A stretch of 28,114 nt of DNA from positions 1 through 28,114 of the forward strand of contig CAZICC010000002.1 in the NCBI GenBank assembly GCA_964537645.1. Direction: 5' to 3'. Under the pieces are notes generated by a model. The model did not search any database and had not been told where the DNA came from. It was given only the letters and a program-made list of their open reading frames with translations. This stretch comes from an uncultured Candidatus Saccharibacteria bacterium (GTDB lineage: Bacteria; Patescibacteriota; Minisyncoccia; CAZICC01). This document shows, piece by piece, positions 3,896 to 24,925 of this stretch. Position 1 is the first letter of the stretch; the number at the start of each line of letters is the position of its first letter. Both the position numbers and the translations under genes were made by a program.

Positions 3896-4489
3896 ATGCT
3901 CGATGAATTAAATAAAAAAGAAGAACAATCCGCCCAAGGCGGACAAGAAGCCGCCGAAAAAGCGGTTGATGAGATTGCCGCGTCGGCTTCGCCTCCTCGC
4001 GATGACAAAGAAGAAACGCCTCGCGATGACGAGAGCGAATTGGAGAAAGCTAAGCGCGAGCGGGGTGAATATCTTGCCGGATGGCAAAGAGCCAAGGCGG
4101 ACTTTTTGAATTACCAGAAAGACGAAAAGAAGCGGTTGGAGGAATTTTTGAAATTTTGCGAAGCTGGGTTGATTGGCGATTTATTGCCGGTTCTGGACAG
4201 TTTCGATTTGGCTTTGAATGAGATTGCTTCGTCGGCTCCGCCTCCTCGCAATGACAAATTGGCCAAAGGCTTTTTCCTCATCAAGTCCCAGATGGACGAG
4301 ATTTTGAAAAAGAGGGGATTGGAGCCGGTGAAATCCGTCGGCGAAAAATTCAACCCGGAATTTCACGAAGCGGTGGCGACGGTTGAGGACTCTTCCAAGG
4401 AATTCCAAACAATCGTTGAAGAAATACAAAAAGGATACGCGCTCAACGGCAGAACGTTGAGAGCGGCAAAGGTGAAGATAATCAAATAA
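3896..4489 (+). CDS. grpE: Nucleotide exchange factor GrpE, with two repeat-derived peptide segments
   Basis: QRAKADFLNYQK, LLPVLDSFDLAL, GEKFNPEFHEAV and QKGYALNGRTLRAAKVKI motifs; lies upstream of dnaK. Confidence 0.96.
   Translation: MLDELNKKEEQSAQGGQEAAEKAVDEIAASASPPRDDKEETPRDDESELEKAKRERGEYLAGWQRAKADFLNYQKDEKKRLEEFLKFCEAGLIGDLLPVLDSFDLALNEIASSAPPPRNDKLAKGFFLIKSQMDEILKKRGLEPVKSVGEKFNPEFHEAVATVEDSSKEFQTIVEEIQKGYALNGRTLRAAKVKIIK
3971..4006. repeat. 36-nt palindromic repeat in-frame in grpE (copy A; partial copy at 4019-4030)
   Basis: GAGATTGCCGCGTCGGCTTCGCCTCCTCGCGATGAC encodes EIAASASPPRDD; 32/36 identical to copy B. Confidence 0.85.
4220..4255. repeat. 36-nt palindromic repeat in-frame in grpE (copy B)
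   Basis: GAGATTGCTTCGTCGGCTCCGCCTCCTCGCAATGAC encodes EIASSAPPPRND; internal ATTGC...GCAAT palindrome. Confidence 0.85.
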
Positions 4490-4602
4490 TTTTGAATTTT
4501 TAATTTTGAATCAATTTTCAATTATCTAATTTCAAAAAATAATTTTAAAATTGAAACATTCAAAAATTTATTCGAAATTCAAAATTCAGAATTTAAAATT
4601 AA
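4488..4602. repeat. AT-rich heptamer-period imperfect hairpin between grpE and dnaK
   Basis: Left arm has TTTTGAA/TTTTTAA units and right arm has AAATTC/AAAATTC units that are reverse-complementary to them. Confidence 0.65.
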
Positions 4603-12926: not shown

Positions 12927-13010
12927 TGACGGAATAACACGGATATCATACGGAAAAACTCGGAAATAAAATTCCGCGAAATTCCGTCAGATATCCGCGA
13001 AAATCCGTAA
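12927..13010. repeat. CCGCG/CCGT-type ~10-11-nt-period imperfect hairpin upstream of the beta-propeller gene
   Basis: TGACGGAAT (12927-35) pairs with ATTCCGTCA (12981-89); the 26-mer at 12964-12989 is identical to 15275-15300. Confidence 0.75.
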
Positions 13011-17613: not shown

Positions 17614-18726
17614 ATGAAAGATTATTACAAAATTTTAGGCGTGGAAAGAAGCGCTTCCGAAGAGGAAATCAAGAAAGCGTTCCGCCGCCTGGCGCACCAG
17701 CACCATCCCGACCGGGGAGGAGACGAAAAGAAATTCAAGGAAATCAACGAGGCCTACCAGATTTTGTCAAACAAGGAAAAAAGGGAGCGATACGACCGTT
17801 TCGGGACGACTTTTGAGGCGCCCGGCGCCGGGTCATGGTGGAGTCAAGGTTCTCCCTTCGGCCGGGGTTTTGATTTCAGCGAATTTTTCCGCCAAAAGGG
17901 GAAAGACGGCGACGCGCCTTTCGGCGGCCAGAGTTTTGATTTTGACTTAAACGACATTTTTGACAGCTTTTTCGGAGCGGCAACCCAAACGCAAAGGCGA
18001 AAAAAAGGCGCCGACATCAGGGTTGATTTGGAGATTTCCCTGGAAGAGGCGTTTTCGGGGCTTGGCAAAAAAGTGGAACTGAAAAAGTTCGTCAAATGCG
18101 CGAGGTGCGCCGGCGGCGGCGCCGAGCCGGGAAGTCCCACAAAGCAATGTCCGGATTGCGCCGGCAAGGGCGAAATCAGGCGGACGAGGCGGAGTTTTTT
18201 GGGCGGCATCAGCGAAATCGCGATTTGTCCGTCCTGCCTGGGCGAAGGGATTAAGCCGGAAAAAAATTGCCGGGATTGCCGCGGAGAAGGCCGTCGCAGC
18301 GGTTTGGAAGAAATAAAAATTGAAGTTCCGGCCGGCATCCAAAACGGTCAGTTTATTAAAATCGCCGGAAAAGGAGAAATGGCCGAAAAAGGAGGCGTGG
18401 CAGGGGATTTATACGTCCATGTCCACGTCAAACCCCACCGGCTTTTCAGGCGCGAAGGCAATGACCTTTATTATGAATTGCCGATTTCGTTCAGTCAGGC
18501 GACGCTCGGTGATAAAATTGAGGCGCCGACCATAGACGGCGCCATTGATCTGAAAATCCCGTCCGGCGCGGAGTCGGGCGCCGTTTTCAAGGTCAAAGGC
18601 AGGGGAATGAAGGGCGCGGGCGGCGGACGCGGGGATTTTTACGTCCAAATCAAGGTCAAAACGCCGAAATCCCTGACGCGCGAACAAAAGGAATTATTGG
18701 AAAAACTGAAAGAGAAAGGGTTGTAA
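17614..18726 (+). CDS. dnaJ: Molecular chaperone DnaJ
   Basis: J-domain with HPD, a G/F-rich region, four CxxCxGxG repeats and C-terminal GDLYV and FRREGNDL motifs. Confidence 0.98.
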
Positions 18727-18749
18727 TTTCCCTTCGGATTTGATACTAT
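18721..18749 (+). promoter_or_regulatory. sigma70-type promoter for tRNA-Lys-secDF
   Basis: TTGTAA (includes the dnaJ stop)-N17-TACTAT with a TG extension. Confidence 0.6.
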
Positions 18750-18759
18750 TTATTTCGTG

Positions 18760-18916
18760 AGGAAATCTGTTCTAATAAAATTTTCATAAGGGACCGGCCG
18801 GAAAACAATCTTTACAAGCGGTATAAAAACTGATAGAGATTCCTCGCTTCGCTCGGAATGACAGAAAAATAAAGGCCGTGGGGTCCCCAAAGAAAATTTT
18901 ATAGAATAGATTTCCT
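18760..18916 (+). mobile_element. ~157-nt MITE-like structured element, copy 1
   Basis: Imperfect ~25-bp terminal inverted repeats (AGGAAATCTGTTCTA...TAGAATAGATTTCCT), an inner GC stem and the core GAGATTCCTCGCTTCGCTCGGAATGAC; homologous to the reverse complement of 21400-21563. Confidence 0.7.
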
Positions 18917-18925
18917 TTTTCTTGT

Positions 18926-18998
18926 CCGCCCATAGCTCAGTTGGTAGAGCAGCTCCCTTTTAAGGAGAGGGTCCCAGGTTCGAATCCTGGTGGGCGGA
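18926..18998 (+). tRNA. tRNA-Lys (anticodon UUU)
   Basis: Full cloverleaf: acceptor CCGCCCA/TGGGCGG, D-arm GCTC/GAGC, anticodon loop CTTTTAA and T-arm CCAGG-TTCGAAT-CCTGG. CCA is not encoded, and there is one G-A mismatch at the top of the anticodon stem. Confidence 0.95.
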
Positions 18999-19007
18999 TA
19001 CGTTTGA

Positions 19008-20516
19008 ATGTTTACTAATCCTGACGAAAAAAAAATAATTCCGAAATCGTCCAAACACCGGCGGTGGGTTTATCTTTTGGTCGCCATAATGCTTTCGGCG
19101 CTGTTTTTCGGTTTTTTGGGATACCCGGCGGCCTGGGACAAATCCGCCGATTTTATCAACGAAAAATTAAGTTTGGAAAATTACGGCTTAAAAATCCCCC
19201 ATATCTGGAAAATTCCTTTCCGCCTCGGTCTGGATTTGCAGGGAGGCACCCATTTGGTTTACCGGGCCGATTTGTCGGGACAAGAAGATGATCCCGATTC
19301 CTCAATGGCCGGCCTTCGGGACGTTATTGAACGCCGGACCAACCTTTTCGGCGTGGCCGAGCCCCTGGTAAGCGTCAACAAGACCGGAAACGACTGGCGC
19401 CTGATAGTGGAACTCGCCGGCATCAAAGATATTGGACAAGCCATTAAAATGATAGGGGAGACGCCGTTTTTGGAATTCAGGGAAGAAAAGAGCGTTTCGG
19501 AGCGCGACGAAATCCTGGCGATGACCCTAGAAGAAGAAACCGCGAATCAAATCAAAGACGCCATCTGTCTGAACGCGCACGCGTTGACCGCTTACCTCCA
19601 GTCCTATCCTTACGTCGGCGACCCTTGCTATATTCCGACGCCGCTTAACGGCAAATACCTGAAACGTTCCGCCTTGGATTTTGACCCGACCACCTACAAG
19701 CCCGTGGTAAATCTGGAATTCAACGACGAAGGGACGAAATTGTTCGCCGATATCACCGAACGGAACGTCGGCAGATTCGTGGCGATTTACCTTGACGGCG
19801 CTCCGATTGAAATTCCGCGGGTCAACGAAAAGATTCCCAGCGGCCGGGCTCAGATTTCCGGCGCTTTCTCCGCCGAAGACGCAAAAATTCTGGTTGAACG
19901 GCTCAACGCCGGCGCCCTGCCGGTTCCCATAAATTTGATTTCCCAGCGCAGCGTCGGCGCGAGCTTGGGCGCCGATTCCCTGCAAAAAAGCATCAGGGCC
20001 GGAATTTTGGGTTTCCTGCTGGTCGCGGCATTTATGGTTGTTTTTTACCGCCTGCCCGGAGTTTTCGCCGTTTCCGCGCTTTTAATCTACATCTCGGTCG
20101 TCTTGATGATATTCAAAACCATTCCGGTGACTTTGACCTTGGCGGGCATTGCCGGATTCATCCTTTCCATAGGTATGGCGGTTGACGCCAATATTTTGAT
20201 TTTTGAACGAATGAGAGAAGAGTTGCGCTCCGGCCGCCGCCTGGCATCGGCCGTTGAAGAGGGGTTTTCTCGCGCCTGGCCGTCAATCCGCGATTCCAAT
20301 ATTTCCACCATCATTACCTGCGTCGTCCTTTACACTTTTGCCGCTTCCATCATCAAGGGATTCGCCCTGACTCTGCTTATCGGCGTAATCGTCAGTATGT
20401 TTTCGGCCATTTTTGTCACCCGGACGCTTTTGAAGGTTTTTCTCGGTCCCGGGCTGGAAAATAAAAATTGGCTTTTCGGCTTGTGCAAACTCCGCGGCGA
20501 AGCCGACAAATCATGA
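19008..20516 (+). CDS. secD: Protein translocase subunit SecD
   Basis: LGLDLQGG, VIERR.N.FGVAEP, AIYLDG, LNAGALPVP, SVGASLG, LTLAGIAG and GMAVDANILIFER. Confidence 0.98.
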   Translation: MFTNPDEKKIIPKSSKHRRWVYLLVAIMLSALFFGFLGYPAAWDKSADFINEKLSLENYGLKIPHIWKIPFRLGLDLQGGTHLVYRADLSGQEDDPDSSMAGLRDVIERRTNLFGVAEPLVSVNKTGNDWRLIVELAGIKDIGQAIKMIGETPFLEFREEKSVSERDEILAMTLEEETANQIKDAICLNAHALTAYLQSYPYVGDPCYIPTPLNGKYLKRSALDFDPTTYKPVVNLEFNDEGTKLFADITERNVGRFVAIYLDGAPIEIPRVNEKIPSGRAQISGAFSAEDAKILVERLNAGALPVPINLISQRSVGASLGADSLQKSIRAGILGFLLVAAFMVVFYRLPGVFAVSALLIYISVVLMIFKTIPVTLTLAGIAGFILSIGMAVDANILIFERMREELRSGRRLASAVEEGFSRAWPSIRDSNISTIITCVVLYTFAASIIKGFALTLLIGVIVSMFSAIFVTRTLLKVFLGPGLENKNWLFGLCKLRGEADKS

Positions 20517-21403
20517 TTAACATCATAGGAAACAGGAAAATTTTTTACGCCATTTCCGGGATTTTCGCCGCCGCGGCTATTTTCGGCCTGGTATTTTTTG
20601 GCCTGTCTCTCGGAATAGATTTTAAGGGCGGGTCGGTTATGGAAGCGGAATTCGGCGAGCGGCTGCCCGCGAACGAAGAAATCAGAACCGTTTTGTCAAG
20701 CCTTGATTTGGGCGATTTTTCCGTCCGAACAATCGGCGAAAAAGCGGTAATGTTTAAATTCAGAGACATCTCCGAAGAAACTCACCAGGTAATTTTGGAA
20801 TCGCTCAGAACTGCATTTCCGGATATTGAAGAAAAACAATTTGAATCAATTGGTCCGACCATCGGCCGCGAGCTTCGCAACAAAGCCGTCACCTCTTCCG
20901 TTGTCGTGCTTCTCGCCATTTCTCTCTATATTGCCTGGGCGTTCCGGAAAGTTTCCCGGCCGGTTTCTTCATGGCGTTACGGCGTGGTCACGCTTGTCGC
21001 TTTATTTCACGACATTTTGATACCGACCGGCGTTTTCGCCTACCTGGGCCATTTCCGGGGCGTGGAAATAGATTCCAATTTCATCGTCGCGATTCTGGTG
21101 ATTCTGGGATTTTCGGTCCACGACACCATCGTGGTTTTTGACCGCACCCGGGAAAATTTAAAACGTTACAACTGGGTGGACTTCGCGGAACTGGTCAACC
21201 AGAGCGTCAACGAAGTGTTGGGCCGTTCAATAAAAACTTCGTTTTCTCTTCTTTTGGTGCTGGCGGCTTTATTCGTTTGGGGCGGCGCCACGTTGAAATT
21301 TTTCGTTCTGGCGCTGATGATAGGTATTTTCTTCGGCACCTACTCCTCTATTTTCATCGCCAGCGCTTTAATCGTTGACTGGGAAAAAAGGTTGAGGAGA
21401 TAA
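20513..21403 (+). CDS. secF: Protein translocase subunit SecF
   Basis: LGIDFKGGS, FESIGPTIG, HDILI, GFSVHDTIVVFDR.RENL and GTYSSIFIAS; ATGA overlap with the secD stop. Confidence 0.97.
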   Translation: MINIIGNRKIFYAISGIFAAAAIFGLVFFGLSLGIDFKGGSVMEAEFGERLPANEEIRTVLSSLDLGDFSVRTIGEKAVMFKFRDISEETHQVILESLRTAFPDIEEKQFESIGPTIGRELRNKAVTSSVVVLLAISLYIAWAFRKVSRPVSSWRYGVVTLVALFHDILIPTGVFAYLGHFRGVEIDSNFIVAILVILGFSVHDTIVVFDRTRENLKRYNWVDFAELVNQSVNEVLGRSIKTSFSLLLVLAALFVWGGATLKFFVLALMIGIFFGTYSSIFIASALIVDWEKRLRR

Positions 21404-21563
21404 GGAAACTTCTTTTTTAAATTTTCTCCGGGGACCCCCCCGCGACCTTTATTTTTTTGTCATTCCGAGCGTAGCGAGGAATCTCTATAAATTTTAATGC
21501 CGTGTTTTAAATTTATTGTTCGGTCGGCCCCAAATGAAAATTTTATAAAAGAAGTTTCCTTAT
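21400..21563 (-). mobile_element. ~160-nt MITE-like structured element, copy 2 (inverted relative to copy 1)
   Basis: Perfect 17-bp terminal IR ATAAGGAAACTTCTTTT/AAAAGAAGTTTCCTTAT; core 21458-21488 matches the reverse complement of 18833-18863 at 30/31. Confidence 0.7.
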
Positions 21564-21580: not shown

Positions 21581-21614
21581 AAAAAACCGCTCCCGTTTTC
21601 GGGGGCAGTTTTTT
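21581..21614. terminator. Bidirectional intrinsic terminator between convergent genes
   Basis: AAAAAAC-C-GCTCCCG-TTTT-CGGGGGC-A-GTTTTTT. Confidence 0.8.
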
Positions 21615-21628
21615 ATTTCATCTAGAAA

Positions 21629-23412: not shown

Positions 23413-23440
23413 TCCGATTTCGATATTTAGCGAAATCGGC

Positions 23441-23562
23441 AAATCCGAAATCCTAAATCCGAAATCCGAAACGATATTTAAATTCAAAATTCAAAAAGTT
23501 TAAAATTTGAACATTTGAATTTTGGATTTGTTTAGAATTTCGATATTCGAATTTAGAATTTT
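23441..23562. repeat. Heptamer-period imperfect hairpin (AAATCCG arm / AATTTCG arm)
   Basis: AAATCCG AAATCCT AAATCCG AAATCCG AAAC ... GTTTAG AATTTCG ATATTCG AATTTAG; preceded by a 9-bp stem at 23414-23439. Confidence 0.8.
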
Positions 23563-23568
23563 GCCGTT

Positions 23569-24837
23569 GTGCCTTTGGAAATCGGTTTTTTAAAAGAAAT
23601 CGGACAAATATTCCTGAATTTATGGTGGCTTTACCTGCCTCCGGTTTTGTTTTTCGTTTTTCTTGATTTGTGGGTCGTTTATCTGAAACTGAAAACCATC
23701 TCGGCGCTCAAGTGGCAGCTTCTGGAAATAAAAATTCCCAGGGACATCCAAAAGACCCCGAAGGCGATGGAGCAGATTTTTTCGGGATTGCACGGCATCC
23801 ACGTCTGGGCGTTCACTTTCGCGGACAAATATTTTAAAGGCAAAATTCAAGAATGGTTCTCTTTTGAAATCGTCGGGATAAACGGCGATATTTATTTTTT
23901 CGTTTACACGCCGGTCCAGTTCAGGAACCTTGTTGAAGCCCAGATTTATTCCCAATATCCGTCGGCGGAAATCAACGAAGTTGAGGATTACACGGCGCTG
24001 GTCCCGCCGGATATTCCCGGGCGCGATTACGATTTGTGGGGCACGGAACTGGTTTTAATCAAGCCCGACCCGTATCCCATCAGAACTTATCAGTATTGGG
24101 AGGCGATACCCGAAGAACAACGACTTGATCCTTTGGCGTCGCTGACGGAGGTTCTGTCCAAATTGAAACAAGGCGAACAAATCTGGATCCAATTTTTGAT
24201 AAAACCCACCGGCCTCAAATGGGTTGAAGAAGGAAGAGCGCTGGTGGATAAATTGATAGGCAAAAAACCTAAGAAGAAAGAATCGTTCTGGGGGAAATTT
24301 TCCATCGTGCCGGAATTTTTGAAAAACCTGCTCCGGGCGCCGTTTGCCGAACCGGTTTGGGGCGAGTCCAAGAAAGAAGGCGAAAAAGAAGCGCCGCCAT
24401 CGCTTATAACTTTTTTATCTCCCGGCGAAAAAGAAGTGGTGGAAGCCATTGAAAACGACATAGCCAAACTTGGCTTTGACGTGGCGATACGATTCGCGTA
24501 TCTCGGCCGAAGGGATATTTTTTCGCGCGTCAACGTGGCGGCCGTAATGGGATGCTTCAAGCAGTTCAACGCCCAGAACCTCAACGGCTTTATGCCGAAT
24601 ATCGGCGTGTCAACTTCCGTCCGTTACCCGTTTTTTAAAAAACAGCGGGAGTATTTGAGAAAAAGAAGATTGTTCGCGCGGTATAAATTGCGACTGCCGG
24701 CTTCCAAATATTTCGTTTTGAACATTGAGGAACTGGCCACGGTTTACCATTTTCCGTCTTTCGCGGTGGAAGCGCCGACTCTACGCCGAATTGAAGCCAA
24801 GAAAGGCGGCCCGCCGGCGGATCTTCCGGTAGAGTAA
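23569..24837 (+). CDS. Conserved hypothetical protein with N-terminal TM helix, partner of the downstream VirD4-like ATPase
   Basis: LEIKIPRD..KTPKAMEQIF, SFEI, VEAQIYSQYP.AEI, PIRTY and LNIEELATVYHFP motifs, recalled as typical of genes beside CPR VirD4-like ATPases. Confidence 0.85.
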   Translation: MPLEIGFLKEIGQIFLNLWWLYLPPVLFFVFLDLWVVYLKLKTISALKWQLLEIKIPRDIQKTPKAMEQIFSGLHGIHVWAFTFADKYFKGKIQEWFSFEIVGINGDIYFFVYTPVQFRNLVEAQIYSQYPSAEINEVEDYTALVPPDIPGRDYDLWGTELVLIKPDPYPIRTYQYWEAIPEEQRLDPLASLTEVLSKLKQGEQIWIQFLIKPTGLKWVEEGRALVDKLIGKKPKKKESFWGKFSIVPEFLKNLLRAPFAEPVWGESKKEGEKEAPPSLITFLSPGEKEVVEAIENDIAKLGFDVAIRFAYLGRRDIFSRVNVAAVMGCFKQFNAQNLNGFMPNIGVSTSVRYPFFKKQREYLRKRRLFARYKLRLPASKYFVLNIEELATVYHFPSFAVEAPTLRRIEAKKGGPPADLPVE

Positions 24838-24925
24838 CTAACAATTTACAACTTACGACTTACGACAAGAGGTTAGAGATTATTTAAAAGAACGGCTTGC
24901 GACTTTTGTTGTTTGTTGTTAGTTA
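24835..24925. repeat. Heptamer-period imperfect hairpin (TTACGAC arm / TTGTTG arm)
   Basis: TAACTAACAA (24835-44) is the exact reverse complement of TTGTTAGTTA (24916-25); TTACAAC TTACGAC TTACGAC units. Confidence 0.75.

Follow-up and report, generated by a model that had tools for sequence, protein, structure and literature searches.

What does it mean that one and the same palindrome occurs twice, in opposite orientations, on either side of a short gene block? The question is raised by a 28,114-nt stretch of DNA from an uncultured Candidatus Saccharibacteria bacterium (contig CAZICC010000002.1; hereafter the window), in which two composite palindromic elements (copies 1 and 2; coordinates in Table 1) bracket the genes tRNA-Lys, secD, and secF. 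An earlier note, made from the letters of the DNA, had suggested that the fold of the element is selected as RNA or as single-stranded DNA (ssDNA), that it might be a structured RNA or resemble a miniature inverted-repeat transposable element (MITE), and that it could permit inversion of the enclosed segment. Our analysis makes it probable that the element is a lineage-specific, non-coding, MITE-like palindrome with a nested ssDNA hairpin of the type associated with the GIY-YIG nuclease Ssn, and that two independent insertions brought it into short spacers. The inverted bracketing of tRNA-Lys-secD-secF is most likely incidental.

Both elements lie around these genes, inverted, where the earlier note had placed them, and the end-to-end alignment it described extends over the full length: copy 1, read on the + strand, and copy 2, read as its reverse complement, share 85% column identity. 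Each copy is laid out as arms of about 40 nt around a centre of about 75 nt. The inverted repeats comprise arms of 24-26 nt matching at 83-92% plus inner arms, in both copies, and a centre of 43 nt common to the two is 95% identical by BLAST. This centre carries a 25-nt core which, read as GATTCCTCGCTWCGCTCGGAATGAC, has exactly two occurrences in the window (18838-18862, +, and 21459-21483, -), whereas 100 shuffles lead one to expect none. The palindrome of copy 2 reaches somewhat beyond the element, to 21400-21563. Only spurious open reading frames (ORFs) of at most 50 aa overlap the element, which is non-coding.

Each copy folds into one long hairpin, with energies of -55.3 (copy 1) and -49.7 kcal/mol (copy 2) and z-scores of -6.5 and -5.7, respectively; no shuffled sequence was as stable. 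RNAalifold, run on both copies together, returned 46 pairs, 10 of which carry double-sided changes that preserve pairing, while one shows a one-sided change (A-U to G-U) and none is broken. The compensatory differences between the stems are thus real, as had been claimed; MAFFT aligned the copies with a shift of one base in register, on which some of the ten double changes hinge, and five are unambiguous by eye, four of them in AATCTGTTCTA/TAGAATAGATT versus AACTTCTTTT/AAAAGAAGTT and one in GGCC/GGCC versus GACC/GGTC. Together with the strong fold (z around -6), these changes could speak for a structured RNA, a hairpin selected in the transcript as pre-tRNA leader and secF 3′ untranslated region (UTR), which would control processing, stability, or termination, or whose two copies would pair with each other. 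Both copies do lie in probable transcription units, one after a candidate promoter and the other between the stop codon of secF and a terminator, and each has one G.T wobble, read from the sequence, on the same element strand. We consider this explanation unlikely, however. The opposite strands are equally stable (-55.3 versus -57.2 and -49.7 versus -51.6 kcal/mol), with RNA and DNA parameters alike, and the idea of using a strand-specific fold as a pointer to the relevant strand was dropped for the same reason. The two copies have opposite orientations relative to transcription, so their transcripts would be complementary and not one RNA. The covariance models of Rfam 15 matched only the tRNA: no hit overlapped copy 1 even at E<=10, and at that cutoff a few sub-threshold hits (PyrR, GibS, and others), centred on the terminator and far below their gathering scores, reached into copy 2. 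In addition, close relatives carry the same operon without the element at either site, and the conserved features of the core fit the site of an ssDNA-specific nuclease that binds no RNA (PMC11893778). Since DNA-level correction of palindromes would likewise be expected to produce mirrored changes in the arms, these do not by themselves support selection at the RNA level, and on all these grounds we do not follow the earlier note in that part of its proposal.

Both window copies are lineage-specific insertions, because the sites they occupy are empty in relatives. No record identical to the window's SecF was found. Its homologues place the window organism in Patescibacteria, the nearest being labelled Candidatus Azambacteria, and we compared the contigs of three close relatives, L121 (SecF 88% identical), L122 (84%), and L123 (85%). 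At the orthologous dnaJ-tRNA and secF junctions, L121 and L122 keep the order dnaJ-tRNA-secD-secF and carry the element at neither; their dnaJ-tRNA spacers measure about 50 nt (L121) and about 75 nt (L122), and secF is followed immediately, 3′ of its stop codon, by the terminator. At the secF junction the element is likewise missing from a nearer strain sampled by X2, the sister run of the source subsurface-metagenome run X1 (which contains 88% of sampled window words): an X2 contig, identical over the secF end at 48/51 nt, leads straight into the terminator region without copy 2. In L123 (966-1148), and also in L124, a different palindrome of about 180 nt lies between the secF stop codon and the terminator, flanked as TA/GTCG...CGAC/TA. 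Copy 2 likewise lies between two TA dinucleotides (21401-21402 and 21561-21562; TA/AGGAAAC...GTTTCCT/TA), and several loose ends in the metagenome read ...TTTA/AGGAA and TTCCT/TA...; the TA around copy 2 also prolongs the palindrome, so that a duplication and a repeat look the same here. The stop codon of secF (TAA) occupies 21401-21403, and its final A (21403) doubles as the first base of copy 2, which therefore begins at the stop codon as the earlier note had read it. Excising copy 2 and one TA in silico yields ...AGA TAT TGA, and the SecF encoded before the insertion would have been one residue longer.

Further copies came to light when contigs from X1 and X2 were aligned to the two elements with a likeness cutoff of >=80%. 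Arms or centre are matched at 80-95% by at least 6-10 more contigs with depths of 3-6x, which then pass into unrelated flanks; these pieces are unassignable to the window's own genome. In X1/X2, contig depth summed across the arms exceeds that of unique flanks by a factor of 4-12, and the exact core reaches up to 470x in the metagenome because many other organisms in the sample carry it. A contig of 1529 nt holds a third full copy, with a centre nearer that of copy 2, a 752-nt X1 contig has a decayed core, and a 1339-nt X1 contig shows a lone arm. Particularly, a 227-nt X2 contig combines the same inner arms with a third outer arm, AGGATTTTGTTCTAAAA/TTTTAGAACAAAATCC, again self-complementary, around a 71-nt centre that is unalignable at 80%. 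All three readable arm pairs are self-complementary, although an 11-nt segment is different in each. It is thus by its arms (AGGAA...TTCCT) that the family is defined, and the core-bearing centre is one variant, itself multiplied. With empty orthologous sites and more diverged copies in the source metagenome, the MITE-like character suggested by the earlier note stands. That note had feared that covariation or further copies would fail to appear, or that the element would match a described insertion sequence (IS) end or MITE exactly; nothing of the kind emerged as feared, but the core does match a described class of repeats, as set out below. No candidate emerged when the spurious 46-aa ORF that crosses copy 1 was used as a protein query for copies miscalled as genes.

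The behaviour of the arms brings in another explanation, namely that their mirrored changes are unselected and were made in neutral DNA by correction of quasi-palindromes, either through template switching during replication, an established mutational process in bacteria, or through mismatch repair once the hairpin has snapped back. We regard this as a serious possibility, if somewhat short of the better bet: it agrees with the equal stability of both strands, with the three arm pairs just described, and with the presence of several other palindromes in the spacers of the window, unrelated in sequence and likewise variable among relatives. It leaves unexplained why the centre and the core are the best conserved parts. 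It does not conflict with a MITE-like insertion carrying a nuclease-type hairpin, as it concerns only why the arms stay paired.

We then turn to the core, GTCATTCC-GAGCGNAGCGA-GGAATC, 25 nt long. A scan with one genome per species found the exact 25-mer, unchanged, at a minimum of 120 genome loci of many phyla; the details below hold for the matches listed. These come from Acidobacteriota, Chloroflexota, Planctomycetota, Nitrospirota, Gemmatimonadota, Bacteroidota, Proteobacteria, Firmicutes, and Patescibacteria, the last including four metagenome-assembled genomes (MAGs; L006, L041, L052, L117), and from one Nanoarchaeota bin (L013). Beyond the core the flanks are not conserved. The core is mostly intergenic, with 24% of occurrences inside crude ORFs versus 81% of random positions. 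Its 5-bp stem occurs in the variants ATTCC, ATCCC, ATCCT, ACCCT, ATTCT, and ATTTC, always with a compensated partner, while the loop GAGCGNAGCGA, in which N may be any of the four bases, the 5′ (T)GTCA, and the 3′ TC are constant; the arrangement (T)GTCA, 5-bp stem, GAGCGNAGCGA, stem, TC is kept in all 200 loop matches of the 120 loci listed. On the GTCA strand the loop holds GCGNAGC, flanked by two G.A/A.G oppositions. GCGNAGC is a DNA mini-hairpin that is stable whatever the N (PMC13037366). When two cores lie within 60 nt of each other, the GTCA ends point outward in 43 doublets and the opposite way in 4; in the window copies they point inward, unlike in the doublets and in the ssn units found elsewhere.

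No protein family of >=90 aa accompanies the core regularly. Clustering the ORFs of >=90 aa from the 120 listed loci revealed no recurrent neighbour; the largest clusters were response regulators, short-chain dehydrogenases/reductases, and ABC ATPases, and the idea of a transposase or any other gene linked to the core within about 4 kb on either side was rejected for ORFs of this size. Nor is the core generally nested in larger palindromes, since long complementary flanks surround it in 6/127 occurrences elsewhere versus 2/120 controls, compared with z-scores of -5.4 and -6.5 for the window copies. As nesting is this rare elsewhere, the composite is not a general feature of the core motif; we take it to have arisen locally, as a MITE-like palindrome with one core at the apex. 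Patescibacteria offer another example of nesting in L041 (Roizmanbacteria), where a 14-bp inverted repeat, TAACCTTCGAGGTT/AACCTCGAAGGTTA, surrounds the core. Other loci show company of a different sort. One or two partial (CTC)GGAATGAC repeats, spaced by 8-25 nt, lie on the TGAC side of the core in 15/135 occurrences (L001, L013, L026, L028, L043, L065, L082, L086, L106, L108, L115, L116, and others) and on the other side in 3; by analogy with SsnA, the TGAC side is the one on which an Ssn-type nuclease would cut. A second conserved motif, TTTTTCCGCAGCCTGT or its complement, stands 15-30 nt past the core in L008, L017, L018, L021, L025, L074, L102, and the metagenome loci L129-L144, which suggests that Acidobacteriota-type loci may also have a larger, lineage-specific composite. 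Finally, 21 IMG/VR contigs classed as viral (L147-L167) carry the exact core, several of them as inverted doublets; neither the composite nor a GIY-YIG homologue was present in them within the fetched stretch.

Searches of the literature with the exact core strings and their peptide translations gave no match, and the link to the work of Chenal et al. (2025; PMC11893778) was reached through a related Neisseria string, GTCATTCCCGCG. These authors describe the Neisseria Transformation Sequence (NTS), a 28-nt repeat, CGTCATTCCCGCGMAVGCGGGAATCYRG, which contains dRS3. SsnA, a GIY-YIG protein of 94 aa, binds the NTS solely as ssDNA and on one strand, cuts a few bases upstream of the motif (5′ of GTC), and ignores RNA and double-stranded DNA; the three bases preceding the palindrome are important for cutting, and the C following it for binding (PMC11893778). 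Hairpins related to the NTS, the Ssn-related motifs (SRM), flank ssn genes in several phyla, and an IS-like origin was raised as a hypothesis only (PMC11893778). The core shares with SRM and NTS an oriented hairpin whose 5′ side reads GTCATTCC and whose 3′ side reads GGAATC, the GTC (cleavage) before the palindrome and the C (binding) after it, and a habit of being intergenic, highly repeated, and placed around single-domain GIY-YIG genes of 90-100 aa, although this last holds for other genomes and not for the window. It differs in having a stem of 5 bp instead of 6-7 and a constant 11-mer loop, GAGCGNAGCGA; moreover, in the window the motif stands alone, at the apex of a 157-nt palindrome, whereas SRM occur in clusters flanking genes. 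Likewise, Neisseria dRS3 (ATTCCC-N8-GGGAAT) and the core (ATTCC-N11-GGAAT) are related in design but are different repeats. The core fails the published SRM string at the GA after the stem, and we see it, from its sequence, as a variant of the SRM design and not a proven member. In this sense, a "dRS3/REP-like core nested in a long hairpin", as the earlier note put it (REP, repetitive extragenic palindromic sequence), was an apt description, for the core has the design of SRM and of the dRS3-containing NTS and flanks GIY-YIG genes elsewhere.

Those GIY-YIG genes were seen directly. In the Chloroflexota MAG L110 (1935-2365), an IS-like unit consists of a single GIY-YIG ORF of 94 aa within perfect inverted repeats of 37 bp, each made of the exact core plus 12 bases, with GTCA outward. 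In L128 (155-451), a 99-aa GIY-YIG ORF lies between variant cores (stems ATCCT/ATTCT), not the exact 25-mer; the downstream hairpin, GATTCTTCGCTACGCTCAGAATGA (stem ATTCT/AGAAT), encodes the last seven codons of the ORF (DSSLRSE) and its stop, and the catalytic Tyr, Tyr, and Glu of the protein are at positions 7, 18, and 65, versus 6, 17, and 64 in SsnA. A partial GGAATGAC also occurs in L128, 20 nt beyond the downstream hairpin. L145 (Roizmanbacteria) and L146 (Daviesbacteria) have homologues at 70-72% identity, and the hairpins on either side of these genes share the design but differ in their stems. The proteins associated with the core belong to a family of >3000 members and match Pfam PF01541 (E 1e-16), with no specific family in NCBIfam or PADLOC; the nearest solved structure is that of the UPF0213 protein 1zg2 (E 0.0016).

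These units bear on the alternative that the core is a REP or REPIN (an inverted REP doublet) moved by a RAYT, the Y1 HUH transposase of such repeats, or else a classical IS end, without any link to GIY-YIG proteins. The core is indeed short, palindromic, intergenic, and dispersed, often in inverted doublets as REPINs are, and the composite has the long inverted repeats of a MITE. Yet the 5′ tetranucleotide is GTCA and not GTAG, no Y1 gene or other neighbour recurs among the ORFs of the 120 loci listed, and the one small gene that has the hairpin design on either side is a GIY-YIG gene, with the exact core in L110, so that we give this alternative little credit. A bolder extension is that the core and the small GIY-YIG gene form a true mobile system, in which the L110-type unit is an IS driven by a GIY-YIG ssDNA nuclease, while doublets and composites are non-autonomous derivatives that have spread across phyla, including the Candidate Phyla Radiation. 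If true, it would add a class of nuclease to the transposases; GIY-YIG ssDNA nucleases are not known to act as transposases, and we offer the idea as a rather doubtful speculation.

The orientation of the copies also allows a reading in which the 2.5-kb tRNA-secDF segment is a cassette that flips or is exchanged between its inverted copies, or that is marked by them for control of recombination or transformation. The copies, about 85% identical (95% over the 43-nt centre), inverted, and 2.5 kb apart, would be suited to it, and in Neisseria NTS repeats do cluster around particular genes, NTS-gene-NTS DNA being less transformable (PMC11893778). Against this, gene order and orientation are unchanged in relatives that have no elements, X1 assembles the parental junction without a mismatch and shows no inversion joint (though contigs drop rare variants), and no recombinase gene lies nearby. 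An inverted orientation, besides, has a 50% prior for two random insertions, and the GTCA ends point inward here, against the outward orientation that prevails 43 to 4 among the listed doublets. A cassette thus seems highly improbable to us, and the inversion of the segment envisaged in the earlier note finds no support.

Several observations weigh against the interpretation we prefer, a MITE-like palindrome with a nested Ssn-type hairpin. A tblastn search found no GIY-YIG homologue in the 28-kb window, and an Ssn-type nuclease would have to be encoded elsewhere in the genome; there are no transposase genes in the window either. The published SRM string HGTCWYN(0-2)YYVSBRHN(0-5)WNVSBRGN(0-2)RNCYNB, which recognised the NTS used as control, matched neither the core nor any other site in the window, and the rarity of nesting around the core elsewhere also counts here. 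Only two full copies are readable, the others being contig pieces and loose ends of 30 nt, and copy 1 has no TA flanks (gtg/.../ttt). The composite was found in 0/18 loci from a metagenome scan with GGAATGACANAAAAATAAAGG, the source contig likewise not being among the matches; the same string had no match in the viral contigs, and blastn of copy 1 against plasmid and phage records found nothing. The composite is therefore documented for one study.

Granting that interpretation, the following course of events may be proposed. Because its strands fold equally well, its copies oppose each other relative to transcription, and Rfam has no match, we infer that the element would act at the DNA level and not as RNA. 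Wherever the region becomes single-stranded, during replication, repair, or DNA uptake, the arms could snap back and expose the core hairpin on the GTCA strand as a very stable GCGNAGC mini-hairpin with tandem G.A pairs alongside, which a putative nuclease encoded elsewhere in the genome might bind or nick. Hairpin-templated correction, selection for the ssDNA hairpin, or the two combined could keep the arms complementary. The element would spread by means of an enzyme acting in trans, for which a TA-targeting DDE transposase and an Ssn-type nuclease are candidates; the TA flanks hint at the former, working on the arms, and the latter, working on the core, is the alternative. We see the element as selfish repeat DNA and not as a dedicated regulator of the genes it brackets. 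The consequences for these neighbours are real but incidental: copy 1 would lengthen the pre-tRNA leader by 157 nt, and copy 2 completes the secF stop codon with its first base and would put another 158 nt of hairpin-forming 3′ UTR ahead of the terminator.

Table 1. Features of the window at and around the two elements.
Feature	Position	Strand	Remarks
Copy 1, composite palindromic element	18760-18916, 157 nt	+	AGGAAAT...ATTTCCT; in the dnaJ-tRNA spacer, 9 nt upstream of tRNA-Lys
Copy 1 core, hairpin resembling an Ssn-related motif	18838-18862	-	Forward strand of the core, GTCATTCC-GAGCGAAGCGA-GGAATC, is the - strand of the window
Copy 2, composite palindromic element	21403-21560, 158 nt	-	AGGAAAC...GTTTCCT; inverted with respect to copy 1; between the secF stop codon and the terminator
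Copy 2 core	21459-21483	+	Forward strand of the core, GTCATTCC-GAGCGTAGCGA-GGAATC, is the + strand of the window
Candidate tRNA promoter	18721-18749	+	TTGTAA (18721-18726), 17-nt spacer, TACTAT (18744-18749); ends 10 nt before copy 1
tRNA-Lys(UUU)	18926-18998	+	Rfam tRNA, 69.6 bits; anticodon loop CUUUUAA
secD	19008-20516	+	Pfam families found on the orthologue
secF	20513-21403	+	PF02355, PF07549
Intrinsic terminator	21589-21615	+	Common to secF and the convergent gene; in relatives directly after the secF stop codon

The genes between the elements are otherwise ordinary (Table 1). ARAGORN places the tRNA at 18925-18999, one base off the Rfam register, and calls it tRNA-Stop with anticodon tta. 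The Rfam alignment places a G27.A43 mismatch uppermost in the anticodon stem, and the suppressor call looks like a one-base register artefact of this mismatch. That copy 1 sits between a promoter and the tRNA, as the earlier note had it, is plausible, but the promoter is weak, agreeing with 8/12 consensus positions, which is under the threshold of the scanner and hence was not reported by it. The relative L121 has a good promoter-like site, TTGCAA-17-TATGCT, whose end lies 14 nt before the tRNA.

Elsewhere in the window there are five other intergenic palindromes of 63-115 nt (540-654, 4487-4601, 12927-12989, 23448-23561, and 24835-24925), unrelated in sequence to the element, two of which start at the TAA stop codon that closes the gene upstream. 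Where the window has an insert at 23413-23568, the spacer of L121 measures 5 nt and has none, and L123 has a different insert; turnover of such inserts is thus a general trait of the clade. Repeats of the SRM type also occur within a gene: grpE (3896-4489) contains two in-frame, SRM-like 34-mers (3973-4006 and 4222-4255) and a partial copy (4020-4030). The 34-mer, GATTGC..CGTCGGCT.CGCCTCCTCGC.ATGAC, encodes EIAASASPPRDDK and EIASSAPPPRNDK, and none would be expected by chance. The stem at 4222-4255 is matched (ATTGC/GCAAT), and that at 3973-4006 reads ATCGC/GCAAT. The repeats lie in the variable N-terminus and in a variable loop after LDSFDLAL; a clean in-frame insertion was not borne out, as the variable loops of homologues are similar in length.

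What had looked like a puzzling structured element thus becomes a palindromic insertion element with a candidate site for an ssDNA-specific GIY-YIG nuclease at its apex. The analysis goes beyond the published work on Ssn in three respects. A variant with a 5-bp stem around GCGNAGC escapes the published string, yet is unchanged in >=120 genomes; the same design, with copies flanking genes, exists in Patescibacteria, whose tiny genomes had been regarded as poor in repeats; and the hairpin can ride inside another palindromic element, with SRM-like repeats even in grpE. For annotation, the element accounts for spurious ORFs (peptides such as CHSERSEES and SFRAKRGIS) and for contig breaks at the locus. 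The locus also calls for caution, as mirrored changes in DNA palindromes can be mistaken for RNA covariation.

Among the closest known systems is also the Correia element of Neisseria, a MITE with long inverted repeats and TA duplication. Like MITEs of the Correia type, the element is about 150 bp long and non-coding, has long inverted repeats that would form a hairpin in transcripts, lies beside genes in leaders or 3′ UTRs, varies in its presence among close relatives, and shows TA at several termini. It has no sequence similarity to them, however, and no parent IS of it was identified; its outer arm is hypervariable yet self-complementary, and a nuclease-type hairpin occupies its centre. The core for its part recalls REP/REPIN-RAYT systems in its inverted doublets of fixed geometry and in the single small gene flanked by the same repeats (L110), but it has GTCA and not GTAG, a GIY-YIG nuclease gene in place of a Y1 HUH transposase, and the same 25-mer across phyla, whereas REPs are lineage-specific. 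The Neisseria intergenic mosaic elements (NIMEs) consist of RS segments flanked by dRS3; they resemble the element as mosaic repeats built on a dRS3-type hairpin, with the difference that dRS3 stands at their edges and the hairpin of the element is central. Lastly, the window as a whole is reminiscent of the Rickettsia palindromic elements, where, in small genomes as well, palindromic repeats have invaded spacers and even coding regions, as the 34-mers of grpE may illustrate here.

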